Source: Acetofilamentum sp.
GTDB taxonomy: Bacteria; CAIWAD01
NCBI GenBank assembly: GCA_020726405.1
Contig: DYSB01000003.1
Location: 1 to 54,066 of the forward strand
Direction of reading: 5' to 3'
Length of the DNA: 54,066 nucleotides
Below are positions 2,188 to 26,215 of the stretch, piece by piece. The notes beneath the pieces were generated by a model, which had not been told where the DNA came from, made no database searches, and was given only the letters and a program-made list of their open reading frames with translations. Positions within the stretch are counted from its first letter, which is position 1. Each line of letters begins with the position of its first letter. Both the position numbers and the translations under genes were made by a program.

Positions 2188-4566
2188 ATGTCCAAGCTTT
2201 CCCTTCTCTTCATTCTGCTGTTGACCGGCGCCACCGCCGCACCCGCCGCGCTGGAGCCGCCCGCGCACCCGCTGTTCACCGGGGACGCCGTCCACGAGAT
2301 CCAGCTGGACTTCCCCCAGCCCGACTGGTGGGAGCAGCTCACCTTCAATTTCGAGACCTACGAGGATCCGCCGGATATCCCGGCCACGTTTAGCTGGAAC
2401 GGCACGGTGCTGGATTCCGTGGGCGTGCGGTTCAAGGGCAACAGCAGCTACTGGAGCTACTACGGGCCGAAGAAGTCCTTCAAGCTGGATCTGAATTCCT
2501 TCCTCTCCGGACAAGAGCTGGCCGGCCTGGACAAGCTGAGCCTCAACAACTGCTTCCTGGACCCCAGCTATCTGCGGGAGAAGTGCGCCTATGAAGTGTG
2601 TGCCGCCGCAGGCCTGCCGACGGGGCGGAGCAATTTCGCCGCCCTCTATCTCAACGGGCAGTACTGGGGCCTCTACTTGCTGGTGGAGCAGGTGGACCAG
2701 GAGTTCATCGAGAGCCGCTTCGGCGCAGGCGAGGCGGGCAATCTGTGGAAGGGCGACCCCCACGGCACGCTGGAGTTCCAGGGGACGGATCCCGCCGCCT
2801 ATCAAGACGACTACGAGTTGAAGACCAACGAGGAAGAGAACGACTGGTCGGCGCTGGTGGATTTCACGGCGGCCTTGGGCAGCACGCCGACGGCAGCGCT
2901 GCGGGACAGCCTGCACAACCGCGTGGACATCAGCTCCGCCCTGGCCATGCTGGCCGTGGACAACCTGCTGGTCAACCTGGACTCCTACCTGGGCAGCGGG
3001 CACAACTTCTACCTGTATCACCGCGACCTGGACAGCCGGATGGTCTTCATTCCCTGGGACTTGAACGAGGCCTGGGGCGTCTTCAACATGGGGCTTGGTC
3101 TCACGCAGCTGCGGCAACTGAATCCACACTGGCTGCCCGGCGGCCAGCCGCGACCGCTGGCGGCGCGGCCCTGGCAGTTGTCGGAACTGGACCAGGTCTA
3201 TCTGGGCCATCTGCGCCGGTTGATGGCCGGCCCGGCTCAGCCGGACACGCTGCTGGCCCGCATGGAGGCCTTGCACGAGCTGGTCCGGCCCTGGGCCCTG
3301 GCGGACACGAACACCATGTTCACGAACGCCCAGTTTGAGGCTTCGCTGGAATCCGACCTCAACGCCCCGGGTGGTCCGCCACCGGGCCGGCTGATACCCG
3401 GCCTGCGCTCCTTCATCACGAGGCGGGACAGTTGGCTGCGCCAGCAGATCGGCTCCTGGAGCCCCATCGGCCAACTGGTGCTGAACGAGGTTCTGGCTGA
3501 CAACGGCGGCACGCTGGCGGACGAGGCCGGCGACTTCGACGACTGGATCGAGGTGCTCAACGCGGGCCCGACGCCGCTGCATCTGGCGGGCCTGCAGCTC
3601 ACGGACCACTGGGAGGGCGAGGCGGATTTCAGCTTCCCGGACCTTCTGCTGGAGCCGGGCGAACGCGTGCTGGTGTGGGCCGACGAGGAGCCCGGCGAGG
3701 GGCTGCTCCACGCACCCTTCAAGCTGGACGCCGATGGCGAAGGGCTCTATCTAGTGCAGGACGGATCCATCCTGCAGCAGGTGGACTGGCCCGCCGTGGG
3801 CGAGGATCAGGCCTGGGGGCGCTGGCCGGACGGCACGGGCGCCTGGACCCGACTGAGCGTGGCCACTCCTGAGGCGGAGAACCAGAACCCCAGCGGCGGC
3901 ACTGACCCTGTGTTGGTCCTGAACGAATTTCTCGCTTCCAACGACGGCGGGCTGCCGGACGAGACCGGCACGCCCGAGGACTGGCTGGAGTTGTTCAATC
4001 CAGGTTCGGCGGCCGTGGAGCTGGGCGGGCTGTATCTGACGGACGATCTGACCCGCCCCACCCAATGGGTCCTGCCCGACACCAGCCTGGCTGCCGGCGG
4101 TTTCCTGCTGGTGTGGTGCGACGACGATCCCCAGGACGGCCCGTTGCACGCCACGTTCAAGCTCAGCGCCGGCGGGGAGGAGATCGGACTGTTCGGGCGG
4201 CTGGAAGCCGGCAACCACGCCCTGGACACCCACGAGTTCGGGCCGCAGCTGACAGACCAGAGCGAAGGCCGGCTGCCGGATGGCATGGGTGCCTGGTCGG
4301 CGCTCTTCGTCCCCAGCCCGGGCGCGCCCAACCTCTCCGCTGTGACGGATCTGGCCATCGACTATGCCTCTGCCACGGGCCAAGTCACACTGGGTTGGAG
4401 TACCGTGCCCGGTGCGCTCACCTATGCCGTGCTGGCGACGGAGGACCTGACGGCGCCCTTCCCGGAGGGTTGGACCCGCCTGGCGGAGGGCCTGTCGGAG
4501 CCCGGCTGGAGCGGTCCGGCCGGGTCGGGGCGGCGCCTCTACCGGGTGGTGGCCGTCACGCCCTGA
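2188..4566 (+). CDS. Secreted CotH kinase family protein with two lamin-tail domains
   Basis: Signal peptide; VGVRFKGNSS, KKSFKLD, GLYLLVEQVD, HNFYLY, IPWDLNEAW; two LNE..A.N....DE.G...DW.E..N repeats. Confidence 0.85.
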   Translation: MSKLSLLFILLLTGATAAPAALEPPAHPLFTGDAVHEIQLDFPQPDWWEQLTFNFETYEDPPDIPATFSWNGTVLDSVGVRFKGNSSYWSYYGPKKSFKLDLNSFLSGQELAGLDKLSLNNCFLDPSYLREKCAYEVCAAAGLPTGRSNFAALYLNGQYWGLYLLVEQVDQEFIESRFGAGEAGNLWKGDPHGTLEFQGTDPAAYQDDYELKTNEEENDWSALVDFTAALGSTPTAALRDSLHNRVDISSALAMLAVDNLLVNLDSYLGSGHNFYLYHRDLDSRMVFIPWDLNEAWGVFNMGLGLTQLRQLNPHWLPGGQPRPLAARPWQLSELDQVYLGHLRRLMAGPAQPDTLLARMEALHELVRPWALADTNTMFTNAQFEASLESDLNAPGGPPPGRLIPGLRSFITRRDSWLRQQIGSWSPIGQLVLNEVLADNGGTLADEAGDFDDWIEVLNAGPTPLHLAGLQLTDHWEGEADFSFPDLLLEPGERVLVWADEEPGEGLLHAPFKLDADGEGLYLVQDGSILQQVDWPAVGEDQAWGRWPDGTGAWTRLSVATPEAENQNPSGGTDPVLVLNEFLASNDGGLPDETGTPEDWLELFNPGSAAVELGGLYLTDDLTRPTQWVLPDTSLAAGGFLLVWCDDDPQDGPLHATFKLSAGGEEIGLFGRLEAGNHALDTHEFGPQLTDQSEGRLPDGMGAWSALFVPSPGAPNLSAVTDLAIDYASATGQVTLGWSTVPGALTYAVLATEDLTAPFPEGWTRLAEGLSEPGWSGPAGSGRRLYRVVAVTP

Positions 4567-4659
4567 GCTGGCGGCGCGCTTTGTAGATTGACTCCCGAAG
4601 CGGGTCCCGCGCGAAGTGGGGCCCGCACGGAGCGCGGTCCCACAGACGGGAGACGGATC

Positions 4660-6519
4660 ATGACCGAGCTGTTGCAACGCAACGAGATATTCCAGGTGCT
4701 CACACCCGAGGAAGCCGTGCTGCTGGCCGGCCTGCTGAAGGAGGAGCGCCTGCACGCTGGCGACGTGGTCTTCCGGCAGGGTGAGAAGCGCCGGCGCCTG
4801 ATTCTGGTGCAGAGCGGGGCCATCCGGGTGAGCGAGCGCACGCCCCGGGGCGAGCAGGTGCTGGTCACGTACCACGCCGGCCATTTCCTTGGCGAGGCGG
4901 CGCTGCTGGACGACACGCCGCACAGCACCACGGCGACGGCCGCGCTGGATTCGGTGCTGCTCACGCTGGAGCGCGGGCGCTTCCAGAAGTTCCTGGAGGA
5001 GCATCCGCAGTTGGCCGCCCGGGTGCTGGGGCAGGTGGCCCGCGTGGTGTTCGGGCGGATGAAGCTCGGGCTGGCTGCGGCGGGCGGAGCCGCCCAGTAC
5101 CGCACCGGTGCCGTGCGCGTGGAGCACGACCTGTTGGGGGACCGCGAGGTGCCGCGCGACGTGTATTACGGCGTGCAGACCCTGCGGGCGCTGGAGAATT
5201 TCGACATCACGGGGATTCCCCTGCACCATTTCCCTTTCTTCATCAAGGCGCTGGCCATGGTGAAGAAGGCCGCGGCCCAGGCCAACACGAGGCTGGGCCT
5301 GCTGCCGGAGGACCTCTCCACTGCAATCCAGCAGGCCTGCGACGAGATCATCGACGGCCAGCTCCACAACCAGTTCGTGGTGGACATGGTGCAGGGCGGG
5401 GCGGGCACCAGCACCAACATGAATGCCAACGAGGTGATCGCCAACCGCGCGCTGGAACTGCTGGGCGAGGAGATGGGCTGTCACACGCGCCTGCATCCCA
5501 ACGACCACGTCAACCTCTCCCAGAGCACCAACGACGCCTATCCCACCGCCATCCACCTGGCCATGCTGCTCAGCGTGCGGCCCCTGGTCTCGGAGATGGA
5601 GGAACTGGTGGAGGCCCTGCGGGTCAAGGCGCGGGAGTTCTCGCGGGTCATCAAGATGGGCCGCACCCAGCTCCAGGATGCCGTGCCCATGACCCTGGGC
5701 CAGGAATTCGCCGCCTGGGCCCAGTCCGTGGAAGAGGACATCGACCGCCTGAAGGAGAACGCCCTGCTCTTCCTGGAAGTGAATCTGGGCGGCACGGCCA
5801 TCGGCACGGGCATCTGCGCCGACCCCTCCTATCCGCGCGAGGCCATCAAGGCCTTGCGCCGGGTCTCGGGCTTCGAGTTCATCCTGGCCAAGGATCTGGT
5901 GGAGGCCTCCAGCGACACGGGCAGCCTGCTGATCTTCAGCGGCATCCTGAAGCGCGTGGCCGTCAAGACCAGCAAGATCTGCAACGACCTGCGCCTGCTC
6001 TCCAGCGGCCCGCGCTGCGGCTTCGGGGAGATCAACCTGCCGGCGCGCCAGCCGGGCAGCAGCATCATGCCCGGCAAGGTCAACCCGGTGATCCCCGAGG
6101 TGATGAACCAGGTGGCCTTCCAGGTCATCGGCAATGACCTGACGGTGACCATGGCCGCCGAGGCGGGCCAGCTGGAGCTGAACGTGATGGAGCCGGTCAT
6201 CGTGTTCAACCTGTTCCAGAGCATGAGCATGCTCGAACGGGGTTTCCGCACGCTACGCCGCTTCTGCGTGGAAGGGATCACGGCCAACGAGGAGCGCTGC
6301 CGCAGTCTGGTGGACAGTTCCATCGGGATCGTCACGGCCTTGCTCCCCTGGATCGGCTACACGGCGGCCACCACGGTAGCGCGGCGGGCGCTGGAGTCGG
6401 GCATTCCGGTGCGCGACATCGTGCTGGAGATGGGTCTGCTCTCCCCGGCGGAGCTGGAGGACGTGCTGCAGCCCGAGCGCATGGTGGCCCCGGTGCGGCT
6501 CTCGGCTGATCGCGGCTGA
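4660..6519 (+). CDS. aspA: Aspartate ammonia-lyase with N-terminal cyclic-nucleotide-binding domain
   Basis: N-terminal VFRQGE...GHFLGEAALLDDTPHSTTATA; then YYGVQTLRA, QGGAGTSTNMNANEV, KMGRTQLQDA, GSSIMPGKVNP. Confidence 0.9.
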   Translation: MTELLQRNEIFQVLTPEEAVLLAGLLKEERLHAGDVVFRQGEKRRRLILVQSGAIRVSERTPRGEQVLVTYHAGHFLGEAALLDDTPHSTTATAALDSVLLTLERGRFQKFLEEHPQLAARVLGQVARVVFGRMKLGLAAAGGAAQYRTGAVRVEHDLLGDREVPRDVYYGVQTLRALENFDITGIPLHHFPFFIKALAMVKKAAAQANTRLGLLPEDLSTAIQQACDEIIDGQLHNQFVVDMVQGGAGTSTNMNANEVIANRALELLGEEMGCHTRLHPNDHVNLSQSTNDAYPTAIHLAMLLSVRPLVSEMEELVEALRVKAREFSRVIKMGRTQLQDAVPMTLGQEFAAWAQSVEEDIDRLKENALLFLEVNLGGTAIGTGICADPSYPREAIKALRRVSGFEFILAKDLVEASSDTGSLLIFSGILKRVAVKTSKICNDLRLLSSGPRCGFGEINLPARQPGSSIMPGKVNPVIPEVMNQVAFQVIGNDLTVTMAAEAGQLELNVMEPVIVFNLFQSMSMLERGFRTLRRFCVEGITANEERCRSLVDSSIGIVTALLPWIGYTAATTVARRALESGIPVRDIVLEMGLLSPAELEDVLQPERMVAPVRLSADRG

Positions 6520-7315: not shown

Positions 7316-8121
7316 CCGGGCGCCTGAAACCCCTGGCCCTCTGGCCGGGGGAGCTGGCCCGCGGGCTCAAGGTCCTGTTCACCGACATCGACGACACCGT
7401 TTCCAGCGAGGGTCGCATTCCGGCGGAGGCCTATGCCGCGCTCTGGCAGGCCCGGGAGTGCGGGCTTAAGGTGGTTCCCGTCACCGGCCGGCCGGCGGGC
7501 TGGTGCGACCTGATCGGTCGCATGTGGCCCGTGGACGGTGTGATCGGTGAGAACGGCGGCCTGGTCTTTCGGATGGAACACGGCCGTCTGGCCCACCATT
7601 TCCTCTACGACGACGCCACCCGGGCCGGCTTCCGAGCCGCCCTGGCGGATGTGCAGGCGGACATCCTGCGCCGGGTGCCGGGCGCGGGCATCGCCAGCGA
7701 CCAGGCCTACCGCGAGTACGACCTGGCCGTGGATTTCTGCGAGGACGTGCCGCGGCTGCCCCTGGCGGAGGCCCAGCGCATCCAGGCCATTTTCGAGGAG
7801 CACGGCGCCACGGCCAAGATCAGCTCCATCCACGTGAACGGCTGGTTCGGGGATTTCGACAAGGTGCGCGCCGCGCGCGCCTATCTGCGGGACTTCCTGG
7901 ATCTGGATCCCGAGCGGGACCGCGAGTGCTGCGCGTTCAGCGGGGACAGCCCCAACGACGAGCCCATGTTCGGCTGGCTGGAAGAGACCAGCGTGGGGGT
8001 GGCCAACCTGCGCGACTTCCTGCAGCTGGTCAAGCGCCAGCCAGCCTTCCTCACCCAAGCCCGCAGCGGTGCGGGCTTCGCCGAATTCGTCGCGCGGCTG
8101 GTGGAGCTGCGCTCGGCCTGA
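7312..8121 (+). CDS. HAD-IIB family hydrolase
   Basis: FTDIDDT, VTGRP, ENGG, SSIHVNGW, GDSPND motifs; GTGA overlap with pgsA. Confidence 0.85.
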   Translation: MTGRLKPLALWPGELARGLKVLFTDIDDTVSSEGRIPAEAYAALWQARECGLKVVPVTGRPAGWCDLIGRMWPVDGVIGENGGLVFRMEHGRLAHHFLYDDATRAGFRAALADVQADILRRVPGAGIASDQAYREYDLAVDFCEDVPRLPLAEAQRIQAIFEEHGATAKISSIHVNGWFGDFDKVRAARAYLRDFLDLDPERDRECCAFSGDSPNDEPMFGWLEETSVGVANLRDFLQLVKRQPAFLTQARSGAGFAEFVARLVELRSA

Positions 8122-8134
8122 ATCTCCGGATTCT

Positions 8135-8231
8135 CACGAAGACACCAAGACTCAAAGACACACAGGGTGAGATAGAGGAGTCAAGTCGTCATTCTTGCCC
8201 AGAGGGTTCTTTGAGTCTTCGAGTCTTCGTG
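8135..8231. repeat. Inverted-repeat intergenic element (CACGAAG variant) between convergent genes
   Basis: CACGAAGACACCAAGACTCAAAGA / TCTTTGAGTCTTCGAGTCTTCGTG. Confidence 0.75.
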
Positions 8232-8251
8232 CTACAAGGATCATCGGTGGG

Positions 8252-8989
8252 TCAGGGGGCGAGGTCGCCCAGGAAGGCGGGGCCGCCCAGTTGGGACATC
8301 TGGCCCTGGATCCAGGCGCTGCGCTCCTGCATGTAGGGTCCCGGGCGTGCCGCCGAGTACCGGCGCGGCGAGGGCAACACGGCGGCCAGCCGCGCAGCCT
8401 GTGAGCGGGTAACGCGATCGGGACGGGTGCGCAGCAGGTGGCGCGAGGCCGCGCCCACACCGTAGACGCCGTCGCCGAACTGGGCGATGTTGAGATAGAC
8501 CTCCAGGATCCGCCGTTTGGGCCAGGTCACTTCCAGCAGCACGGTGATCCCGGCCTCCAGCCCCTTGCGCAGCCAATTGCGTCCCGGCCAGAGGAAGAGA
8601 TTCTTGGCCACCTGCTGGCTCAGCGTGCTAGCCCCGCGGATCCGGCGGCTGCGTCCGTTGTGTTGCAGGGCCTTGCCGATGGACTCCAGATCAAAACCCC
8701 AGTGGTCGGGGAAGCGTTGATCCTCGGCGGCGATCACGGCCAGGGGCAGCTGGGCTGACATGTCATCCAGGTCCACCCACTGGTAACGCAGCGGCGGGGC
8801 GTCCTCCCGGAACAGGCCCTCCACCCGGCGCTGGAGCATGACGGAGCTGGTGGGCGGCGGGGCCCAGCGCAGCACCAGCACGAGCAGCAGCAACAGGGCC
8901 GTCAGGGCGCCCAGCACGTAGAGAGTCCGGCGCAGCCAGAGCCGCGCCCAGGCCAGCCGTCCGCCGGCCGGCTTCCGCTCTTGTCTCAC
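8252..8989 (-). CDS. mtgA: Monofunctional biosynthetic peptidoglycan transglycosylase
   Basis: AAEDQRFPDHWGFD, RGASTLSQQVAKNLFLW, RKGLEA, KRRILEVYLN; GTG start overlaps the upstream stop. Confidence 0.92.
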   Translation of the reverse strand: MRQERKPAGGRLAWARLWLRRTLYVLGALTALLLLLVLVLRWAPPPTSSVMLQRRVEGLFREDAPPLRYQWVDLDDMSAQLPLAVIAAEDQRFPDHWGFDLESIGKALQHNGRSRRIRGASTLSQQVAKNLFLWPGRNWLRKGLEAGITVLLEVTWPKRRILEVYLNIAQFGDGVYGVGAASRHLLRTRPDRVTRSQAARLAAVLPSPRRYSAARPGPYMQERSAWIQGQMSQLGGPAFLGDLAP

Positions 8990-11900
8990 GCCATCCCCAG
9001 GAAATCGTAGCTGGTTTTCTTGCGCAGGTTCCCCAGCAGCGTGAAGAAACGTTTGAGCATGGCCTCCTCGGGCGCGCTCCATTCCTGGGGCGTGATCAGG
9101 TTCGACGGGTCGCGGCTTTCCAGCACGGCTGCCGTCTGCCGGGAGAGGCGTAGCCGCAGGATATCCTCGTAGTCCTGCGTCAACTCTCCGTGGCTCTCTT
9201 GGCTCAGACCGCCCAGTTCGTGCAGGCGGGCCAACCGGTCCAGCGTGTGGGTCTCATCGAGACCGTGCTTGAGTGCGTAGAGGCGCCCCGTGTTGACCAC
9301 GGGCAGCAGGGCCTCCTTCAGGTCCAGCGCCCGGACCCCCGCCGGCGTGGACGAACTGAGCAGCAGGTTGCCCCGCAGGCCCAGTGCCGGCTTGCTCAAT
9401 AGCGTGTTCTGAGCCAGGTGCAACAGGAAGGGCGGGTGCTGGCGGATCTCGTCCAGCACGAAGCCGCGCAGTTCGTGGGCCAGGGCGGGATCGCCGCCCA
9501 CGGCGCGGAAGTCGAAGGCGATGTTTAAGTCGAGCAATTCCTGGGGGCCGGCCTCGCGGATCCAGCGCGAGAAGCGCGCGCGCCAGTCCGCGGCGGACTG
9601 GTTCCAGCGCGCCTGGGAGGCCATCACGCCACCCGTGCATTCACGGTAACCGGCCGTGGCCAGGCCGGCGCAGACGCGGCGGCCCAGTTCGAGGAAGTAG
9701 GCCGTGCAGGCCTCGCGCTCCTCGGCGGGCGGGTCCTCGTAGAGCAGGCCGTTGTCCTGGTCGGTGAGCAGCGTCTGCTCCTGGCGGCCCTCGCTGCCCA
9801 TGGCCAGGAAGACAAAGCGCGCCGGCGGCGGGCCCATCTGCTCCACGGCCAGGGCCAGCAGGCGCTGCAGCGCGCCGTCCGCCACGCTGCTGATCAGGCG
9901 GTTGATTGCCCGCATGCGTGTGCCGGAGACCAGCAGGGCCTGGACCAGCCGCGGCAGGCGGCCCACGGCCTCGGCCAGTTCCCCGGCGTTGGCGGCCTGG
10001 CCCAGGGAGTGGGTCAGGATCACGGCGCTGTAGTGGCGGAAGTGCACGAGGTTGCGGTCCCGCAGCACGCCCGCCAGCCGGCCCGCGTCATCCAGGGCCA
10101 CCAGGTGGCCGATGTGCCGGTTCTGCATCTGCAGGATGGCCTCGTAGACCAGGGCGTGGACGGAGATGGTGGCCAGTGGCGCGCTCATGATCTCGCGCAC
10201 GGGCCGCGAGGCCTCCAGCCGTCCGGCGGTGACCCGGGCCCGGAAATCGCGGTCGGTCACCAGGCCGATGGGCTCGCCCTGCTCCGTCACCACCACCAGG
10301 GCGCTGGAGTCCGCCAGACTCATGCACTGGGCGGCCTCGGCGATGGAATGCCCCGGGGTGAGCGCGGGCACGGGCCGCACGGCGGGCGTGACAGGCTCCT
10401 GCAGGTAGAACAGCGAACTCTGCAGTTGGCCAATGAGCTCCTCGCGCCGGGCCTCCTCGCGCACTTGTTCGCTCATGTCCTCGAGCACGCCATCGCAAAC
10501 CGTCCGGCCCTCCTCGCGCACCAGCACGGCGAAGAGCCGCACCTCGGCGCGCGAACCATCGGCGCGGCGCAGGGCCAGCCGCGGCCACTCTGCGCTCTCC
10601 TCGCGCTCCAGGCGTTCCACCAGCTCGCGCCGGACCGGCTCCTCGGCCACGTGCTCGAGCCAGTCCACCCCGTCCACGGCGACCTCGGGCTCCAGACCCA
10701 GCAGGCGGCGCATGGCTGGATTGGCATCCAGCAGGAAGGCGCCGTCCTGCCAGGAGCTGCGGAAGACACCCATCCGGATGGAGCGCGTGAGCTTGCGGTA
10801 GTGCCCGCGGCTGCGCCGCAGCGCGGCGGTGAGTTCCTTGTGGCGGCCGATGTCCCGGGCCACCAGGATGAAGCCGCGCCGGCCCTCGAAAGCGATGGGC
10901 GAGGCAGAGAGCAGGACCTCGGCGTATCCCCCGTCCGGCCGTTTAAGCCGCGCCTCGCCGCCCGGCGGGACGGCGCCGCCGTGCAGCAGGGCCTCCAGCC
11001 ACTCCAGAGCGCGCCGATCGGCCGGACGGTCGTCGGCGAACAGATCCCGCACGTGCCGGCCGGCCAGCTCGCCCACGCCCGCGCCGCAGAGCAGCTCCAT
11101 GGGCCGGTTGGCGTAGGCACAGTCCCCGTCCAGCACCATCAGCGTGCCCTCGCTGCCGGCCTCCGCCAGGGAGCGGTACTTCTCGCGGCTGCTCTTGAGT
11201 TCGCGCTCGGCCCGTGCCCGGCGTGTCTCCAGGGCCAGGCTCTGGCGCATCACATAGAGCAGCAGCAGGCCCACCAAGGCGGCGATGAGCAGCGTGATCC
11301 AGACCAGCCGGCCGCGGACCCGGGCCATCTCGGCCTGGACGTCCTGGGTGTAGATGCCTGTGCCGATCACCCAGCCCCAGGGCCGGAAGGCCTGCACGTA
11401 GGAGAGCTTGGGGACGATCTGGCCCGGGTTGTCTTTCCACTGCCAGTCGTATTCCACATAGCCGGCGTCGCGCTCGCGCACCGCCTCCACGAACTCCACG
11501 AACACGCGTCGGCCGTGGGGGTCGCGGAATTCCGAGACGTCGCGACCGTTCAGGTCCGTGCGCCAGGGGTGCATGATCATCACGGGACGCAGGTCGGTGA
11601 TCCAGAAGTAATCCTTGCCCTCCGGACCGTAACGCAACCGCTCGATGCGGCCGGCAGCCTCCCGGCGGGCGCGCTCCGGCGCCAGATGTCCGCTGGCCGC
11701 TTCGTCCGCGTACTCCTGCAGGATGCTGGCCGCTGTGCGCGTCAGTTCGCGGATGGTCTCCTTTTTCCGCTCCAGCAGCTGGGCTTCCATCATGGGGATG
11801 AAGACGCCGAAGATGGCCAGCAGGAAGAGCACGCCGGCCAGCGCCACGGGCAACCCGATGTGGAGTAGGAAGCCGCGCCAGTTGCGCTCGCCACCCAGGG

Positions 11901-12654
11901 ACTTCCGGCCCCGACCCACGCGCAGGAAGTCGCGGCCCGCCCAGCCCAGCACGCGTGCCAGGGGCAGCCAGGCTTCCTCGGGTAGCTCCAGGCCGGGAGC
12001 GGGGGCGCCCAGGCCACTGCCCGGGCCGTGGTAGTCGCTGCCGCCGCTCACCAGCAGGTCGTGCTGCGCGGCCAGCCCGGCCAAGGCCGCGCGGGTCGCC
12101 TCGTCATAGCTGAGATAGTGGGCCTCCAACCCGTCCAGGCCGCGGGCTTTCCAGTCGGGCAGTCGGGCCGCCAGCTCCTCCAGTCCGGCCAGCCCGGCCA
12201 GCGGATGGGCGGCGAAGGTCAGGCCGCCGGCCTCGTGCACAAGGCGGCAGACGGTCTCCAGAGGCAGCGCGCCTTGACCGGGTCCCAGGGCGACGGCGCC
12301 CGGCTGCCGGCCGCCGCGCAGGGCTCCGGCCACCTGGGCCACGTGCGGATGCCGATTGGAATCCAGGGCCTGCAGCAGGGCCGGGTTGCGCTCGTTGAAG
12401 TGGTAGGCCAGCACGTGCAGGGTGCCCTCGGGGGTCAGGGCGTCGATCTCCGCGCCGCTGACCACGTGGATGCCGCGCGGCTCCAGGGTGCCGCGGAAGC
12501 GCTCCAGTCCGGCGACGGTGTTGTGGTCGGTAAGGGCCGCGTAGCGCACGCCGGCGTCCGCCAATTCCTCCGCCAGCTGCTCGGGCGAGAGCACGCCATC
12601 ACTGAAGGAACTGTGGCAGTGCAGGTCGATACGCCAGGCGCGCGCCGGACTCAT
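8986..12654 (-). CDS. Multidomain membrane sensor-enzyme: PHP - TM - sCache_2 - TM - PAS - PAS - CBS pair - DUF294 nucleotidyltransferase - DUF294_C
   Basis: PHP: DLHCHSSFSDG, TDHNT, GAEI, AAHP, GGSDYHG; Cache: YFWI..MHP..DPHG..VEY.W..KLSYV..PWGWVIGTGIY; PAS: YANRPM, DANPAM; CBS: IGLVTDRDFR..IMSAP; NTase: MGSEGRQEQTLLTDQDN; DLKEALLPVV..RLYAL. Confidence 0.85.
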   Translation of the reverse strand: MSPARAWRIDLHCHSSFSDGVLSPEQLAEELADAGVRYAALTDHNTVAGLERFRGTLEPRGIHVVSGAEIDALTPEGTLHVLAYHFNERNPALLQALDSNRHPHVAQVAGALRGGRQPGAVALGPGQGALPLETVCRLVHEAGGLTFAAHPLAGLAGLEELAARLPDWKARGLDGLEAHYLSYDEATRAALAGLAAQHDLLVSGGSDYHGPGSGLGAPAPGLELPEEAWLPLARVLGWAGRDFLRVGRGRKSLGGERNWRGFLLHIGLPVALAGVLFLLAIFGVFIPMMEAQLLERKKETIRELTRTAASILQEYADEAASGHLAPERARREAAGRIERLRYGPEGKDYFWITDLRPVMIMHPWRTDLNGRDVSEFRDPHGRRVFVEFVEAVRERDAGYVEYDWQWKDNPGQIVPKLSYVQAFRPWGWVIGTGIYTQDVQAEMARVRGRLVWITLLIAALVGLLLLYVMRQSLALETRRARAERELKSSREKYRSLAEAGSEGTLMVLDGDCAYANRPMELLCGAGVGELAGRHVRDLFADDRPADRRALEWLEALLHGGAVPPGGEARLKRPDGGYAEVLLSASPIAFEGRRGFILVARDIGRHKELTAALRRSRGHYRKLTRSIRMGVFRSSWQDGAFLLDANPAMRRLLGLEPEVAVDGVDWLEHVAEEPVRRELVERLEREESAEWPRLALRRADGSRAEVRLFAVLVREEGRTVCDGVLEDMSEQVREEARREELIGQLQSSLFYLQEPVTPAVRPVPALTPGHSIAEAAQCMSLADSSALVVVTEQGEPIGLVTDRDFRARVTAGRLEASRPVREIMSAPLATISVHALVYEAILQMQNRHIGHLVALDDAGRLAGVLRDRNLVHFRHYSAVILTHSLGQAANAGELAEAVGRLPRLVQALLVSGTRMRAINRLISSVADGALQRLLALAVEQMGPPPARFVFLAMGSEGRQEQTLLTDQDNGLLYEDPPAEEREACTAYFLELGRRVCAGLATAGYRECTGGVMASQARWNQSAADWRARFSRWIREAGPQELLDLNIAFDFRAVGGDPALAHELRGFVLDEIRQHPPFLLHLAQNTLLSKPALGLRGNLLLSSSTPAGVRALDLKEALLPVVNTGRLYALKHGLDETHTLDRLARLHELGGLSQESHGELTQDYEDILRLRLSRQTAAVLESRDPSNLITPQEWSAPEEAMLKRFFTLLGNLRKKTSYDFLGMA

Positions 12655-12775
12655 GCGGAATCCTCCCGGGTGAGTGCAGGGTCAACTTCGGAAACGAAGG
12701 GCTCTCCTAGCCCGCAAAGGGCCGGCGCAGGTCCCTGACCGCGCCGGCCCCCACGATGTCACACGGATGATTCGA

Positions 12776-14683
12776 CTAGTGCTCCACCCCCGTCGTGGTG
12801 CGCGTGGTCAGCAGCGAGACCATGATCAGGGCCAGGAAACTCAGCGGGATGGAGATCACGCCGGGGTTGTCCAGCGGGAAGGGGGCCGTGGACGGGTCCA
12901 GTCCGTATTTCTCATACAAACTGGGGGAGAAGAGGATCAAGCCCACCGAACTGAGGATGCCCACCGTGATGCCCGCCGTGATGCCCTTGGCCGTTGTTCG
13001 TTTCCAGAACAGCATCATCAGGATGGCCGGCAGGTTGGCGCTGGCCGCCACGGCGAAGGCCAGACCCACCAGGAAGGAGACGTTCATGCCCTTGAACAGG
13101 ATGCCCAGCACGATGGCCAGGATGCCCACGGCGAAGGCGGCCACCTTGCCGGCGTGGACCTTCTGCGCCTCGTTCATGTTGCGGCCCGCGTAGCGGTCCA
13201 TCAGGTCGTGGGCCACGGCGCCGGAGGCGGCGATGATCAGCCCGCTCACGGTGCCCAGCACGGTGGAGAAGGCGATGGCCGAGATGACCGCGAAGAGCAG
13301 TTCGCCGAAGGAGCGCGCCAGGAGCGGCGCCGACATGTTGTTGTCCAGTGGATTCACCACGCCGCTGGTCATGGCGCCCAGGCCCATGTAGAGCGTGAGC
13401 ACGTAGAAGGCGCCGATGGCCGCGATGGCCACGATGGTGGACTTGCGTGCCGAGGTGGGGCTGGGCACCGTGTAGTAGCGGATGAGGATGTGGGGCAGCG
13501 CGGCGGTGCCGAAAAAGAGGGCCAGCATCAGCGAGATGAAGTCCAGCTTCTCCAGCGGCGTGCCTTCCACTTTGAACTTGAGACCAGGACGCATCACGCG
13601 GTTGCCCGGGGTTTCCTGGGGGTAGATCACCTTGACCTTGGCGCCGTCTTCCGCCGTGAAGGAGACATCCTTCCAGCGGCGCACCACGGTCTCCTTGTCC
13701 GACATCAGCGAGAGATACTCGAGGGGTCCCGCCGGGCCCGACAGGGCCGCATCGCCCGTGCGGCCGGCCACGCGGACCAGATTGCCCACTTGGCGAAACT
13801 TGTTCTCCGGCGAGGCGGGCGCGCCGTTGATCACATGCGTGCCGTCCGCGCTCTTGGCCTCCCACTGGGCCTGGGTCAGTGTCACACGGCCGTCATCCCC
13901 TTCCTCCACGTGCCACCAGCCCTCGCCGGCGGGACCGGCGAGGCGCACGAAGCGCGCCTGCTTCACCGCGGCGTTCTCCAGCACGGCGAAGGTGCTGTCC
14001 AGGGGCAGCACCGCGTCGCCGGCCAGCGTGGCCTGCAGCACGGCGGGCTCCACGAAGGGGACCTTGCCGCCCTGATCCGGGGCCGGGTTGAAGCCGCGCA
14101 CCAGCACGGCGATCACCAGCGCCAGGGAGAAGATCACCAGCAGGGCGCCCTTGATGAACTGCACGTAGGTGGTGGAGGTCATGCCGGCGGTGGCCACGAT
14201 GGTGATCACGATGGCGCCGACCATGATCACGCCCCAGGCGTGGGGGATGCCCAGCAGGGGTTCCACCAGCACGCCGGCGCCCACCATTTGCGGGATCAGG
14301 TAGAAGATCGAGACGATGAGCGTGCTGATGGCCGCGGCCAGCTTGATCCCGCGGGAGTCGAACTTGGCGTCCAGCGCATCGGTGAACGTGTACTTGCCCA
14401 GTCGCTTCATGGGCTCGGCTACGATGAACAGCGCCACGATCCAGCCGGCCAGGTAGCCGATGGAATAGAGGAAGCCGTCGTAGCCGGCGGTGGCGATCAT
14501 GCCGCAGATGCCCAGGAAGGAGGCGGCGCTGAGGTAGTCGCCGGCGAAGGCGATGCCGTTCACCGACCAGTGGATGGTGCCGCCGGCCGCGTAGTAGGCG
14601 CTGGCCGAGGTCGTGCGACGGGCCAGCCAGAACGAGAGCCCCAGCACGCTGGCCACAAAGAAGAGGAAGACCGTGATCGCCAT
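12776..14683 (-). CDS. actP: Cation/acetate (monocarboxylate) symporter, SSS family, with large loop insertion
   Basis: NGIAFAGDYLSAASFLGI, YLIPQMVGAG, GMTSTTYVQFIKG, GTAALPHILIRYYTVP, AFAVAASANLP. Confidence 0.85.
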   Translation of the reverse strand: MAITVFLFFVASVLGLSFWLARRTTSASAYYAAGGTIHWSVNGIAFAGDYLSAASFLGICGMIATAGYDGFLYSIGYLAGWIVALFIVAEPMKRLGKYTFTDALDAKFDSRGIKLAAAISTLIVSIFYLIPQMVGAGVLVEPLLGIPHAWGVIMVGAIVITIVATAGMTSTTYVQFIKGALLVIFSLALVIAVLVRGFNPAPDQGGKVPFVEPAVLQATLAGDAVLPLDSTFAVLENAAVKQARFVRLAGPAGEGWWHVEEGDDGRVTLTQAQWEAKSADGTHVINGAPASPENKFRQVGNLVRVAGRTGDAALSGPAGPLEYLSLMSDKETVVRRWKDVSFTAEDGAKVKVIYPQETPGNRVMRPGLKFKVEGTPLEKLDFISLMLALFFGTAALPHILIRYYTVPSPTSARKSTIVAIAAIGAFYVLTLYMGLGAMTSGVVNPLDNNMSAPLLARSFGELLFAVISAIAFSTVLGTVSGLIIAASGAVAHDLMDRYAGRNMNEAQKVHAGKVAAFAVGILAIVLGILFKGMNVSFLVGLAFAVAASANLPAILMMLFWKRTTAKGITAGITVGILSSVGLILFSPSLYEKYGLDPSTAPFPLDNPGVISIPLSFLALIMVSLLTTRTTTGVEH

Positions 14684-14967
14684 CAGTTCCTCCCCTCTTT
14701 GGACGCCAGCAGCCGCTCGCGCACGGAGCAGATCCGGTCATAGATCAGCGCCAGCACCAGGGCCACCAGGATCAGGCCCATGCCGTAGACCACCGCCAGA
14801 TTGAGTCCGGCGAAGACCGTGCGCTCCATGGCCAGGGGATCGGCGATGTTGATGGCCACGAACCCGATGTAGATCAGGGCGTAGACGGCGAACATCCAGA
14901 CGCCCAGTCGGGCTTTGAAGGCGGAGCTTGGGTCTTTGCCCGTGGGGGCAGCGGGTTTGTGCAGCAT
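14683..14967 (-). CDS. DUF485 (YjcH-like) small membrane partner of ActP
   Basis: Two TM helices, GLNLAVVYGMGLI; stop overlaps the actP start; AGGAGG RBS. Confidence 0.85.
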   Translation of the reverse strand: MLHKPAAPTGKDPSSAFKARLGVWMFAVYALIYIGFVAINIADPLAMERTVFAGLNLAVVYGMGLILVALVLALIYDRICSVRERLLASKEGRN

Positions 14968-15195
14968 GGAGACCTCCTAGTCCTGGTTGACTGCGCGAGT
15001 GTATTGGGTGAAGACAATTGACGCATCGGGGCGCGACCTCACGCCACCGAGAATTGTGCTGAGCTTCCATTGTGACAAGCGAACACCGCGGACCCGCCGA
15101 CAGGGCCCGACTGGTGTTCAGCTCCAAAATAGGAGAGGCTCCGCCGGGCGACAACCCAATTTTGGCGGCGGTGACATCCCGCCCGTGAAAAGCTG

Positions 15196-16062
15196 CTATG
15201 CCTCGGGCGGCGCGGGAGGCAACTTGGCCAGCCAACGCCGGCGGCGCCATTCACGGATTGCGTCCAGCCACTGATCGGCCTTCAGGTGGAAGGCCGGCAC
15301 CACCAGCAGGCTGAGCGCCGTGGAGACCGCCAGGCCCGTCAGGATGCCGATGGCCATGGGCGAGCGGATCTCCGAGCCCGGACCCAGTTCCAGGGCGGAA
15401 GGCAGCGCGGCCATCATGGTGGCCGTGCTCGTCATCAGGATGGGCCGCAGACGCTTGGGACCGGCCTCCAGCAGGGCATCCCGGGCCGCCAGTCCGCGCG
15501 CCTGGGCCTGACGCGCGTAGTCCACCAGGATGATGGAGTTCTTCTTGACGATGCCCAGCAGCAGCAGGCCGATCATCGAGAAGATGTTCAGGCTCTTGCC
15601 CGCCAGCCAAAGTCCGCCCGCCGCGCCCGCCACGGAGAGCGGCAGGATGGTGAGCACGGTGATGGGACGCAGCAGGGAGTTGAACTGGGAGGCCAGCACC
15701 ATGTAGGCCACGGCGATGCCCAGGAAGAGCGTCATCAGCAGGCTGCCCATGGATTCCTTGACGGCCACGCTGGCTCCGCCCAGCACCAGCCGGTGCCCGC
15801 CGGGCAGATCACGGCCCATCTCCTCCACCGCGGCCAGCACCTCCTGCTGGGCGTGGCCGGGCGCCACGTTGGCCGTGATGGTGATGGCGCGTTCGCGATC
15901 CCGGCGGGTGATGGCCTGGAGGGCGGGGCGTTCCTCGGTGACCACCACGCTGGAGAGTGGCACCAGTTCGCCGGCCGCCGTGCGAACCCGCAGGCGCATC
16001 AGGTCCTCGGGGCGCGAGCGCTGGCTCGCCAGCAGGCGCATGCGCACGTCCAGGTGCCGGCC
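15196..16062 (-). pseudogene. C-terminal fragment of an AcrB/RND efflux permease
   Basis: ITRRDRER, YMVLASQFNS, IFSMIGLLLLGIVKKNSIILVD, RLRPILMTS; most of the ~1000-aa protein is missing. Confidence 0.85.
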
Positions 16063-16712
16063 ACGTCCTCAACGGGAATACCCAGATCGGCGCAGCGTGC
16101 CCGGTCCGGCATGACACGCAATTCGGGCATGCCCACCTGGTAGTCCGTGTCCACGTCCACGGCCAGGCCGCTGGCCTGCACCCACTCGCGCTCGGTGCTG
16201 GCCAGTTCCAGCTCGGCGCGGGTCAGGTCGTTGCTGCCCACCAGACCGGCCTCGCGCCGCACCTGGATCTCCGTCAAAGAGCGGATAGCCAGCTCCCGGC
16301 GTTCCACGGCGGCCCAGCTGTCATGTCGCGCCTGGCCCACCAGCGGCAGCGCCTGGGCGTCGAAGAGCAGCTGGCTGGCGCCTGCCCGGGCCTCCCAGCC
16401 CTCGTAGCTGGAACTGCCCGAGGCGCCGCCCTCGCTGGCGTATTCGCTGCGGTCCAGGTCCAGCCTGAGGCTGGGCAGCAGAACGGACCAGGCCTGGCCC
16501 ACCCGCGCGGAAGCGGCCTGGCGCCCGGCCCGGGCGATGGCCGCGCGTTCATGATGCTCCAGGGCGGCCTGGATGGCCTGCTCCAGGCTGAGGGACGTCG
16601 CGGCCTGCGCCGGCAGGGCGGCGGCCAGCCCGAGTGTGAGAAAAAGCCCCACGCGGGGCCAACAGGAGCGGAAGGGCTCGGAGCGCCTGGCTCGGTCGGG
16701 TCTGGTTGTCAT
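16063..16712 (-). pseudogene. Truncated TolC-family outer-membrane factor fused by deletion to an AcrB fragment
   Basis: LSLEQAIQAALEH, LLPSLRL, QLLFD, DLTRAELELA, then an abrupt switch to AcrB-like VDVDTDYQVGMPELRVMPDRAR. Confidence 0.75.
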
Positions 16713-16818
16713 GGATGGTCCCGGAATACTCTCGACAGGGCTAGGTAGCACCGCGAATGCAGGGCACCTGCGGCAAGCCTGGCGGGAAGGCGGGATGTGA
16801 ATTCTTGAGCACCCGGGC

Positions 16819-20953: not shown

Positions 20954-23113
20954 TCAACGCACCAGCAGCAATTTGATGGTTTCCCGCCGGCCACCCGCTT
21001 CCAGGCTGGTCACGTACAGGCCGCTGGGCCAGCCCTCCGCCTGGAGGCCTGTCAAGTGGCGGCCGGCGGGCAGGGCTCCCAGCTCCCGGAGCAAAACCTG
21101 TCGGCCGGCCACGTCATGCACCGTCAACCGGGCGCAGGAAACGGGGGTGGCAAGGGTGAAGGACAGGCGCGTGGCCGGGTTGAAGGGATTGGGCGCGGCC
21201 ACCAACTCCAGTTTGTCGGGCCGCTGGGGGCCGGGGTCGACGGCGATCTCGCGCACCACCGCGAGGCGCAACAGGTCCCCGTTCTCCAGGCCCAGCAAGG
21301 CGTGGTAGCCGCTGCCGTCGCTCAGGCAGCGGGCCAGGGCGCTGGGGGCGGCGGACAGGTTCTGCTCGTCGAAGCTGTAAAGGGGAGAGTCCCAATAGGA
21401 CTGGCTGAAATCAAAAACCACGTGGGGATCCCGGGTGGCGGCCAGGCCATAGCCCGTGAAGGAGCAGCGGACCACCGGGCCCTCCATCCACAACGAATCC
21501 ATCAACTGGAAGGGTGTCTGTCCGCTGCGCCGCAGCGCGTACAAAGCCCCCGCCGCGGCGAAGACGTGGTTCTCCTCCCAGGGGCTGGCGGAGAGGTCCT
21601 CCACGGGGCCCGACAGTTGCAGGACGCCGGCCAGCACGGGATGCGCCAAGTCCGTGGCGTCGATGTCGAACAAGCGTCCGTCGGCGCTGCCCACCAGCAG
21701 ATGGCGGCCCGCCCACTTGGCGCAGAGTGGCTCGGCTTGCAGATTGATTGTGCCGTGGTGCAGCAGGAACCATGGACTGCGGTTGGCCTGCTTGAGGGCT
21801 ACGAAGGCATCGGGCGTGACGTAGGCGATGAGGTCGTCGGGGCCCCAGGCCAGCAGCTTGACGGGGTCGGTGGGATGGATGCCGCGCAGCTGCACGCCGC
21901 TCTCCGTCTCCTCATAGAACCGCAGGCCCGCGCCGTAGTGGTTGCCGGCGAACAACAGGGGCTCGCCGGTCCCCCATTCGTGGGTGATGTCCCCGCCGTC
22001 CACGGGCAGGGGAAGAGGGATGCCGGCGGTCTCCCGCGGCTCCTCCTCCTGGGGCCAACGATTCCACCAGAAGATGCGGCGGTAGCCCTGTTTCTGATCC
22101 AGGCACCAGAAGGACGGGTCCTCGTTCTGGCCCACCCAGGGAATGGAGAGCAGGCGGGGCCGCGTGGCATGACGGGCCAGCAGGTCCAGCCGCGGGGCGC
22201 CGGCCTCCTGGCGCAGCACGTGCAGACTGACGCCGTCGGGCCCCTCGGCCACCAGCAGGCTGTCGTTTTGCAGGGCCAGGCGCCGGGCGGATTCCACCGT
22301 GCGCCAGCGACCCACCAGCAGCGGCGCGGCGGTGTTGGACAGATCCGCCACGGCCAGCCCGCTGTCCCCGCAGGCCAGCACGAAGAGGCCATCGCGCCAG
22401 GCCGCCGCATCCAACACAGGCAGGCCCGGTGACCAGGCGGGTCCGACGGTGGGGGAGAAGGGATCGGCCATGTCCACCGCACGCAGTCCATCGTCGCCCA
22501 GGCAGGCGGCCAGCCGCCCGCTCCCACCAGCCAAGCGGATCGCGCCCGAGAGCGCCAGCCGGCCCAACGGAACAGGCGGGTCACCCAGGCCCACGCCACG
22601 CAGGCTATCGGTGTCCGTCCACCACACACCACCCGTGACACAAATGGCCGTCGGCGAGGCGGGAAGATTGCCCAGCACGGGAGTCAGGTTTGGATCTGCG
22701 AGGTCCAGCCGCCCGCGCCAGAGCAGGTCGGCCGTGACGGCCACCAGCAAGTCGCCCTCCACCGCTAGTGCGCGTACCCCGGCCAACTGGGCGACGGGCT
22801 GTTCTCCGCCGCGCTCGCGCAGCAGCAGCCGCTCCCCTTCATCCAGCACGGCGCTCAGCCGACTTCCCGCCGCCAGGTCCACGCCAGCGGACTCCATCGT
22901 CTGACGCTGCTCCAGCAGCATGCCGCCCAAGGGACTCCGGCCCAGCCAGCGGAGGTCACCGGCACTCAAGAGGCAGGGGGCGTTTGCCTGCCAACCCACG
23001 GCCCGCACGTCCACGCCGGGCAGCGTGCCGATGATCTCCACGGCCCGGGCGGGTGCGGCCAGTGCCAGGGTTGCCAGGGCGGCGAGGGCCGACAGCGGAT
23101 TCCAGCGTCTCAT
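20954..23113 (-). CDS. Secreted LVIVD/beta-propeller-like protein with C-terminal FlgD-Ig/T9SS-like sorting domain
   Basis: Signal peptide; GLRAVDMADP and GLAVADLSN repeats; C-terminal APNPFNPATRLSFTL...HDVAGR...WPSGLY...KLLLVR. Confidence 0.8.
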   Translation of the reverse strand: MRRWNPLSALAALATLALAAPARAVEIIGTLPGVDVRAVGWQANAPCLLSAGDLRWLGRSPLGGMLLEQRQTMESAGVDLAAGSRLSAVLDEGERLLLRERGGEQPVAQLAGVRALAVEGDLLVAVTADLLWRGRLDLADPNLTPVLGNLPASPTAICVTGGVWWTDTDSLRGVGLGDPPVPLGRLALSGAIRLAGGSGRLAACLGDDGLRAVDMADPFSPTVGPAWSPGLPVLDAAAWRDGLFVLACGDSGLAVADLSNTAAPLLVGRWRTVESARRLALQNDSLLVAEGPDGVSLHVLRQEAGAPRLDLLARHATRPRLLSIPWVGQNEDPSFWCLDQKQGYRRIFWWNRWPQEEEPRETAGIPLPLPVDGGDITHEWGTGEPLLFAGNHYGAGLRFYEETESGVQLRGIHPTDPVKLLAWGPDDLIAYVTPDAFVALKQANRSPWFLLHHGTINLQAEPLCAKWAGRHLLVGSADGRLFDIDATDLAHPVLAGVLQLSGPVEDLSASPWEENHVFAAAGALYALRRSGQTPFQLMDSLWMEGPVVRCSFTGYGLAATRDPHVVFDFSQSYWDSPLYSFDEQNLSAAPSALARCLSDGSGYHALLGLENGDLLRLAVVREIAVDPGPQRPDKLELVAAPNPFNPATRLSFTLATPVSCARLTVHDVAGRQVLLRELGALPAGRHLTGLQAEGWPSGLYVTSLEAGGRRETIKLLLVR

Positions 23114-25622: not shown

Positions 25623-25730
25623 GCGGGGACTCCCTGGAATGGCGTGCCGCAGCAAGATGAGCGCCGGGTCCGGATGATGCAAGCAAAAGCCGGTCGGTTA
25701 GCGGTGGATTCCCTATGTTGCCGGCCATTC

Positions 25731-26083: not shown

Positions 26084-26095
26084 TGAACCCGGATG

Positions 26096-26122
26096 AGGCC
26101 GGCCTGCGGGCCGGCCTTTTTT
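26096..26122 (+). terminator. Intrinsic terminator of ssrA
   Basis: AGGCCGGCC-TGCG-GGCCGGCCT hairpin plus T-tract. Confidence 0.9.
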
Positions 26123-26215
26123 GTCACACGCGACCGCACCGGCATTCGCTCTTGCGTCCATCACTTCAGGCCCAGCCGCAGCGGCTTCGGGTCCGCGACC
26201 AGTTCGGGAGTTTCC

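Follow-up and report, generated by a model that had tools for sequence, protein, structure and literature searches.

A Cache–PHP–DUF294 membrane sensor linked to an ActP-like symporter: a candidate carboxylate-responsive nucleotidylylation switch

What might a large membrane sensor that ends in a putative nucleotidyltransferase be doing beside the genes for an ActP-like carboxylate symporter? The question is raised by a 54,066-nucleotide stretch of DNA from Acetofilamentum sp. (contig DYSB01000003.1 of assembly GCA_020726405.1, C60 in our numbering, here called the window), which has a G+C content of 68.6% and comes from a genome of 3.06 Mb in 281 contigs that is 91.65% complete. Four consecutive open reading frames (ORFs) on its minus strand, all with the third-position G+C content typical of coding sequence, encode a DUF485 protein, a symporter of the SSF family, the sensor and the peptidoglycan glycosyltransferase MtgA (Table 1). 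The best reading of this locus, which we put forward tentatively, is that the sensor is a carboxylate-gated switch that writes and erases a nucleotidyl modification and works together with the adjacent DUF485/ActP symporter.

We confirmed every coordinate of the gene order, strand and junctions that an initial annotation of the window had described. The stop codon of the DUF485 gene (TGA, 14685-14683), whose own ATG is preceded by the ribosome-binding site GGAGG, shares one base with the start codon of actP (ATG, 14683-14681; 'TGATG'). A 121-nt gap separates the end of the actP stop codon at 12776 from the sensor ATG at 12654, which is preceded by GGGAGG-N7. The stop codon of the sensor gene (TGA, 8988-8986) overlaps a GTG codon (8989-8987) that is in frame with mtgA, and this 'GTGA' junction is also present in a relative that is 96% identical (G002). 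All of the junctions are crossed, with a few differences at most, by contigs from other public metagenomes: one run (X3) contains a 6160-nt contig over 11765-17600 and a second over 7500-9116, and another run (X2) contains a contig over 8123-9123.

The sensor gene is the sole DUF294 gene of the genome. Pfam and NCBIfam profiles together with a hydropathy scan give its product the order PHP, transmembrane (TM) helix, sCache_2, TM helix, two PAS domains, a CBS pair, DUF294 and DUF294_C, with the two C-terminal domains scoring far above their cut-offs (159 bits against 21 for DUF294 and 99 bits against 22.5 for DUF294_C). The initial annotation was right in calling this protein a sensor joined to a nucleotidyltransferase; the PHP domain, the two TM helices, the sCache_2 domain and the two PAS domains had gone unmentioned. 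By TM prediction the sCache_2 domain, which lies between the two helices, is extracytoplasmic. Both helices have K/R-rich segments on their PHP and PAS sides, which places the Cache domain outside the membrane and both enzyme domains inside.

The extracytoplasmic domain closely resembles ligand-binding domains of known structure. It aligns with those of the chemoreceptor-type sensors PscD (5G4Y/5G4Z, E 1.6e-37), McpP and Adeh_3718 (4K08, E 9e-38), at E values of about 1e-37. The PscD study reports that this protein binds glycolate, acetate, propionate and pyruvate through seven contact residues (Y90, W92, H103, F126, Y143, W145 and K156), and that 4K08 was crystallised with bound acetate (PMC5062169). 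The seven contacts align to Y349, W351, H362, F385, Y402, W404 and K416 of the sensor and are all identical; the same seven positions are invariant in 19 of 19 full-length relatives and in 34 of 34 aligned TM-Cache-TM segments. Because the ligand pocket is fully conserved, we infer that the Cache ligand is a C2/C3 monocarboxylate, namely acetate, propionate, pyruvate or glycolate. The carboxylate sensing that had been proposed for this protein thus gains support from residue-level identity with a sensor of known ligands. The outputs differ: that of the chemoreceptors is a methyl-accepting chemotaxis protein signalling domain or a kinase, whereas that of the window sensor is a nucleotidyltransferase together with a phosphoesterase.

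The transferase domain retains a catalytic signature. The motif G953-S954...D965-x-D967 is present together with D1048, and we take these residues to correspond to the G[SG]...DxD motif and third acidic residue at the catalytic site of the Pol-beta superfamily. G953, S954, D965 and D1048 are invariant both among the 19 full-length sequences and in a broader alignment of 65 sequences; D967 is invariant in the former and at least 90% conserved in the latter. We modelled residues 740-1222 from 65 sequences (the window protein and 64 of 68 qualifying segments), at a predicted local distance difference test score (pLDDT) of 91.2. When matches to CBS domains are set aside, Foldseek places GlnE (1v4a, 3k7d) and DrrA (6yx5) first, with E values of 1.6e-8 to 9e-8. 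VIA-align, which is independent of Foldseek, aligns the model with the GlnE N-domain 1v4a at Z 27.2 over 317 residues at 3.3 Å, with the GlnE C-domain 3k7d at Z 25.1 and with DrrA 6yx5 at Z 24.5, and with CBS pairs at Z 15-17.6. GlnE and DrrA are the only transferases among the 50 VIA-align matches listed, most of which are CBS matches, and both are protein adenylyltransferases or close domain relatives of these. The GlnE/DrrA-like fold of the model therefore backs the initial annotation in its view of the protein as a putative modifying enzyme.

We then considered the phosphoesterase at the other end of the sensor. To judge by its profile scores, the PHP domain is a relative, and no equivalog, of the TrpH/YciV-type enzymes (pAp phosphatase or RNase AM): it reaches 105 bits against the nucleoside bisphosphate phosphatase model NF041577 (cut-off 400) and 78.6 bits against the RNase RNM model NF047791 (cut-off 375). 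Its nearest PDB entries are 3e0f, 7ug9 and 2yb1, of which 7ug9 is a 5'-3' exoribonuclease. Across 44 PHP-bearing sequences, H12, H14, D19, H44, E69, H150 and D207 do not vary, and H80 and H209 are kept in 43; we take these conserved His, Asp and Glu positions to be metal ligands.

Relatives of the sensor are numerous, and many of them lack the PHP domain. Scoring of 8000 candidates gave 889 matches, and the best 120 of these include two forms, one of about 1200 aa with the PHP domain and one of about 980 aa without it. In contigs sampled at one genome per species, relatives occur in at least 598 stretches, and we examined the best 80 of these, which come from many phyla, by searching for neighbours with the window proteins (tblastn); genes at these loci were called simply as longest ORFs, so some small neighbours may be missed. 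The PHP domain is present at 39 of the 80 loci: at 35 it is fused to the sensor and covered by a single alignment from the N-terminus, and at 4 it stands upstream as a piece of its own. Of the other loci, 40 are PHP-less and one is truncated by a contig end. A metallophosphoesterase gene of about 250 aa adjoins the sensor at half of the PHP-less loci (20/40), mostly 0-110 nt away, and at none of the 39 PHP-bearing ones. The other PHP-less loci include three with a GAF-HD gene directly upstream, one (L052) with an RNase_T-domain protein plus a second, short CBS-DUF294 gene alongside, and one with an HD/HD_assoc gene downstream that may be incidental.

In a quick maximum-likelihood tree built from 65 rows of the CBS-transferase region, the family falls into two clades, each with an SH-aLRT support of 99. 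One holds 37 PHP rows and one row for which no partner was seen, and the other holds all 17 metallophosphoesterase rows; the exchange between PHP and metallophosphoesterase thus needs one change only. Counting the DEDD exonuclease that accompanies the canonical cytoplasmic form of the transferase, four unrelated phosphoesterase folds are found beside one type of transferase, as would be expected of a dedicated reverse enzyme. The initial annotation had pointed out that the window holds neither acs nor a 3'-5' exonuclease gene, and a scan of 40 ORFs of the window found neither; genome-wide, RNase_T matches are confined to contigs C225 and C237. Most likely the PHP domain that is fused to the sensor takes over the role of the 'missing' exonuclease. 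Some neighbours of PHP-less sensors have no such assignment: the genes beside those of L030 (256 aa) and L033 (250 aa) gave no match to Pfam or NCBIfam, nor to a profile made from the 20 metallophosphoesterases. We also note that a cultured isolate of Desulfobacter latus has three genes in a row (L052:6094-12523), one for a DUF294 sensor of the Cache type, one for a short CBS-DUF294 protein and one for a protein of 681 aa with a C-terminal DEDD exonuclease domain, so that the strain could serve for experimental work.

The symporter encoded upstream belongs to the SSF family (PF00474, E 6e-67), and its best NCBIfam matches, MctC (NF058657, 454 bits, cut-off 670) and ActP (NF006903, 404 bits, cut-off 750; TIGR02711, 325 bits, cut-off 1099), are all below their cut-offs. 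The matches to the ActP and MctC models are each split in two by an insert (Table 1); we refer to the form with this insert as ActP-long. The symporter model (pLDDT 82.6) matches SMCT1 best among solved structures (Z 32.1). In the model the insert is beta-rich, with strands over residues 215-359 in a block of pLDDT of about 85-94, and its position in the TM order predicts that it is periplasmic, in the same compartment as the Cache domain of the sensor. The symporter is 52-87% identical to the copies at related loci, and the insert is conserved across phyla, being spanned by single tblastn alignments in relatives. A search of the ESM Atlas on the insert returned only scores under 0.8, and a broad structure search that used the entire ActP model found matches to the transporter core only. 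The DUF485 protein, whose TM helices lie at residues 21-39 and 57-75 and whose termini are K/R-rich, is presumed to be the small subunit of the symporter; its gene adjoins that of ActP-long at related loci.

The association between sensor and transporter extends well beyond the window. An ActP-like symporter is encoded within 7 kb of the sensor at 57 of the 80 loci. In 42 of these it is ActP-long, nearly always with DUF485, and in the remaining 15 it is another ActP-like SSF protein, with DUF485 or DUF4212; many of the 23 loci that lack such a symporter are short contigs. When only the 41 loci flanked by 7 kb or more on each side are counted, 35 have a symporter of this kind (25 ActP-long, 10 other SSF). 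Relative to the sensor, ActP-long is upstream on the same strand, as in the window, at 28 loci, divergent at 4, convergent at 6 and downstream on the same strand at 4. The link survives these rearrangements and is thus independent of a shared transcript. The symporter, its small subunit and the phosphoesterase are the only neighbours conserved across phyla.

Two other neighbours recur in particular groups. In four actinomycetotal loci (L005, L008, L012 and L022) ActP-long and the sensor are separated by a gene on the other strand that encodes an acetate channel of the GPR1/FUN34/YaaH (SatP) type. At loci from Bacteroidota, Ignavibacteria and Chlorobi, the interval between the symporter gene and the paired metallophosphoesterase and sensor genes encodes a conserved protein of about 421 aa that has no Pfam or NCBIfam match (L039:8675-9940 and 13 further loci), and in 6 loci a tetratricopeptide repeat protein is encoded in this interval as well.

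Presence and absence across genomes follow the same pattern. The full-length sensor is found in six genomes (G000-G003, G005 and G006) and is missing from three others of the same family (G004, G007 and G008) that are 95-98% complete; among 31 relatives, ActP-long occurs in exactly those six. When 121 genomes of the phylum to which locus L024 belongs were sampled, the insert and the full-length sensor were confined to two of them: G031, which had been chosen as the centre of the sample, and G071, where the two are adjacent. Two further genomes have short CBS-DUF294 proteins only. The insert is thus found, in both samples, only where a full-length sensor is present. We treat this co-occurrence as supportive rather than statistical, because kin are not independent and the centre was picked for having both genes. 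In summary, the link between transporter and sensor, for which the initial annotation had proposed a gene-neighbourhood survey, is conserved across phyla and, among relatives, the genes are gained and lost together.

The nearest described relatives of this system are the COG2905 pairs of Pseudomonas, PP_0354/PP_0353 in P. alloputida and PA3233/PA3232 in P. aeruginosa. They share with the window a CBS-DUF294-DUF294_C core, a dedicated phosphoesterase partner and a nearby carboxylate symporter with a small two-TM subunit. COG2905 proteins, however, have an N-terminal cyclic-nucleotide-binding domain, whereas the window sensor has no PF00027 match and instead carries PHP, TM, sCache_2, TM and PAS segments. 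Their phosphoesterase is a separate RNase T/DnaQ-like (DEDD) exonuclease, whereas the window contig has no RNase_T match and the phosphoesterase is the fused PHP domain. A further difference is the insert of about 180 aa in the window symporter. The window system is thus a membrane variant of the COG2905 (DUF294)/exonuclease pairs found in Pseudomonas actP operons.

What has been published on those pairs bears on the transporter. In one fitness study, COG2905 and RNase T-like mutants show cofitness with DUF4212-SSF transporters, and ActP-like permeases need DUF485 (10.1101/072470); these data fit a positive role. Two further studies describe PP_0353/PP_0354 as targets of the acetate regulator MxtR/ErdR with a function that is not known (10.64898/2026.09.07.749794), and PA3232-PA3235 as rising together on propionate (10.1101/2022.08.25.505149). 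According to both, the canonical pair lies in the actP cluster and has mild phenotypes only (10.64898/2026.09.07.749794, 10.1101/2022.08.25.505149). The transporter half of the system has its own precedents in E. coli YjcH-ActP and the DUF4212-SSF pairs of the VC_2705 type, in which an SSF symporter is joined by a small two-TM partner and monocarboxylate substrates are expected; compared with YjcH-ActP, the window symporter scores under the ActP and MctC cut-offs and has the predicted periplasmic beta-rich insert. The literature searched, which lay mostly outside subscription journals, contained no description of a Cache/PHP form and no DUF294 substrate.

A further comparison is with enzymes that modify proteins. 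GlnE, GlnD and DrrA resemble the window protein in joining an alpha-helical C-terminal domain to a transferase of the Pol-beta type (Z 24.5-27.2 for GlnE and DrrA) and in the logic of writer and eraser; in GlnD the transferase is paired with an HD hydrolase. The window protein differs from these enzymes in its low identity (9-14%), in lacking HD and ACT domains, in its periplasmic Cache input and in having no PII-like gene nearby. The analogy with GlnD-GlnK-AmtB that the initial annotation had drawn therefore holds only loosely, as no PII-like intermediary was seen.

These elements suggest a working model. The periplasmic sCache_2 domain of a two-TM receptor would bind an external C2/C3 monocarboxylate, and the signal would pass through TM2 and the PAS domains, with the CBS pair perhaps contributing a signal of its own. 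This input would set the balance between two cytoplasmic activities on a single polypeptide: a GlnE/DrrA-like nucleotidyltransferase that may add AMP or another nucleoside monophosphate to a protein side chain, and the N-terminal PHP domain, which may hydrolyse the resulting phosphodiester. The target would most probably be the transporter complex or a factor that it needs, such that uptake would track both the external supply and the internal state. In the strictest form of the model the protein would be a transmembrane 'receptor AMPylase', in which acids bound by the Cache domain switch the transferase and the PHP domain so that a nucleotidyl mark is written on, and removed from, ActP/DUF485 directly; we regard this form as doubtful.

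Several observations count against a carboxylate-gated protein modifier that works with the transporter. A fold like that of GlnE and DrrA is not enough to establish the substrate, and the literature that we searched, as delimited above, gave no biochemical datum on any DUF294 protein. The partner families (TrpH/YciV-type PHP, DEDD exonuclease, HD-GYP-like and metallophosphoesterase) are best known for acting on nucleotides and oligonucleotides, so that a nucleotide or RNA substrate fits at least as well. No phosphoesterase neighbour was found at 15 of the 40 PHP-less loci, several of which are short contigs, but L027, L033, L034, L056 and L064 have flanks. The transporter link is not obligatory, since at 6 of the 41 full-flank loci no ActP-like symporter is encoded in the 7 kb to either side of the sensor. 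Divergent and convergent pairs, for which no shared transcript is possible, fit a regulator and its target but also fit plain co-regulation. Finally, the GC-rich hairpins in the 121-nt gap (Table 1) could end transcription or lower read-through into the sensor gene. The gap has a single terminator-like site (12713-12699), its length varies among relatives from about 6 to 244 nt, and a sigma-70 scan of positions 8000-15400 found no promoter-like site; the hairpins are possibly a partial terminator or an RNA-stabilising element.

The main alternative, which we consider unlikely, is that the transferase and phosphoesterase act on a nucleotide or RNA rather than on a protein. DUF294 would then make a small nucleotide signal, or a 3' tail on an RNA such as the symporter mRNA, and the PHP domain, metallophosphoesterase, HD protein or exonuclease would degrade the product, with an effect on transporter expression. 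This would suit the families nearest to the PHP domain (3',5'-nucleoside bisphosphate phosphatase and RNase RNM) and the exoribonuclease 7ug9 among its nearest structures, the DEDD 3'-5' exonuclease that is the canonical partner and is found again at L052, and the resemblance of the HD partner to cyclic di-GMP phosphodiesterases; control at the level of expression was also considered by Price et al. The best structural matches of the transferase, in contrast, are the protein adenylyltransferases GlnE and DrrA (Z 24-27), which favour a protein substrate without settling the question. Among the 50 matches listed there is no transferase that polymerises RNA or nucleotides, a weak point because CBS matches dominate the list. 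An Rfam scan of the region likewise found no conserved RNA element, its single match being below threshold and inside mtgA on the opposite strand.

If a protein is the substrate, it may instead be encoded elsewhere: the sensor would be a carboxylate-responsive modifier of, for example, acetyl-CoA synthetase, and would merely share an acetate-responsive unit with the transporter. The genome does encode Acs on another contig (C155), AMP-binding ligase genes lie close to the module at 3 loci and genes for SatP-type channels at 4, the symporter is missing at the six full-flank loci mentioned above, and the P. alloputida authors liken PP_0354 to systems that modify Acs and PII (10.64898/2026.09.07.749794). 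We nonetheless judge a distant target less probable still, as no neighbours other than the symporter, its small subunit and the phosphoesterase are conserved across phyla, the link is kept by three types of transporter (ActP-long with DUF485, shorter ActP-like proteins with DUF485, and SSF with DUF4212), and in the sampled genomes the sensor and ActP-long always occur together. It is far more improbable that the four genes, with mtgA among them, make up a single functional operon joining carboxylate sensing to cell-wall synthesis. The GTGA overlap and an order that is identical in all three other genomes of the genus (G001, G002 and G003) would suit such an operon, but no MtgA homologue was found at any of the 80 loci across phyla, and mtgA is not beside the orthologous sensor in either of two genomes of the same family (G005 and G006), although these keep the order DUF485-ActP-sensor. 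The link to mtgA that had struck the initial annotation as unexpected is therefore real as regards the coupling at the GTGA overlap and the order within the genus, whereas mtgA itself is a lineage-specific neighbour, a bystander outside the module. Co-translation of sensor and mtgA from the overlap is plausible here and has no bearing on the module.

Table 1. Positions in the window of the four genes and of features within and between them
Feature	Position	Strand	Length or residues	Basis or score
DUF485 (YjcH-like) two-TM protein	14683-14967	-	94 aa	PF04341, 34 bits (cut-off 28)
ActP-like SSF symporter	12776-14683	-	635 aa	
Predicted ActP insert between TM6 and TM7	13559-14095	-	about 180 aa (residues ~197-375)	structure model and TM order
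GC-rich hairpins in the actP-sensor gap	12686-12755	-		minimum free energy of gap -56.8 kcal/mol, z -2.14
Sensor	8986-12654	-	1222 aa	single open frame
PHP phosphoesterase	11935-12654	-	residues ~1-240	PF02811, 43 bits
TM1, sCache_2, TM2	11251-11853	-	residues 268-286, ~290-445, 450-468	PF17200, E 1.9e-35; TM scan
Two PAS domains	10495-11193	-	residues ~488-720	PF00989, PF13426, PF13188; TIGR00229, two stretches
CBS pair	10015-10392	-	residues ~755-880	PF00571, two stretches
DUF294 and DUF294_C	9001-9960	-	residues 899-1037 and 1075-1218	PF03445, E 8e-47; PF10335, E 3e-28
MtgA, monofunctional peptidoglycan glycosyltransferase	8252-8989	-	245 aa, counted from GTG	TIGR02070, 271.6 bits (cut-off 182.65)

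Several other ORFs were noted elsewhere in the window. Upstream of the DUF485 gene, the minus-strand ORF at 15196-16047 encodes only the last ~280 aa of an AcrB-type pump and that at 15999-16751, also on the minus strand, encodes a piece of an outer-membrane factor; in two genomes of the same genus (G001 and G002) the pieces lie about 3.9 kb further apart. We considered whether the fragments mark a misassembly and rejected this, as contigs from two other metagenomes cross the junction just as in the window; because these contigs are independent, the deletion is real. On the plus strand, the ORF at 4588-6519 encodes a 643-aa protein in which a cyclic-nucleotide-binding domain is fused to a class II fumarase/aspartase (Lyase_1 and FumaraseC_C), 98.7% identical in G002. 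Also on this strand are a 650-aa fusion of an inositol-monophosphatase-family domain with an ADP-ribosylglycohydrolase domain (26093-28045) and a protein of 792 aa that combines a CotH kinase domain with lamin-tail domains (2188-4566). Two long minus-strand ORFs of 719 and 839 aa (20954-23113 and 23163-25682) have coding-type third-position G+C and no Pfam match at E 1e-5.

DUF294 proteins are widespread, and no substrate has been shown for them in the literature searched. The membrane form described here offers an entry point to the family that the cytoplasmic form does not: its ligand can be predicted with confidence, since the pocket is identical to those of solved acetate and propionate sensors; the candidate targets are few, as ActP, DUF485 and the phosphoesterase are the sole conserved neighbours; and the predicted writer and eraser lie on one polypeptide. 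If the nucleotidylylation switch that we favour is correct, it would represent a new output class for bacterial receptors and a means of post-translational control over organic-acid uptake in many uncultured phyla. Should its strictest form, the receptor AMPylase, also be true, this would constitute a third transmembrane signalling route beside kinases and cyclases, one that acts on a transporter without a step of transcription.

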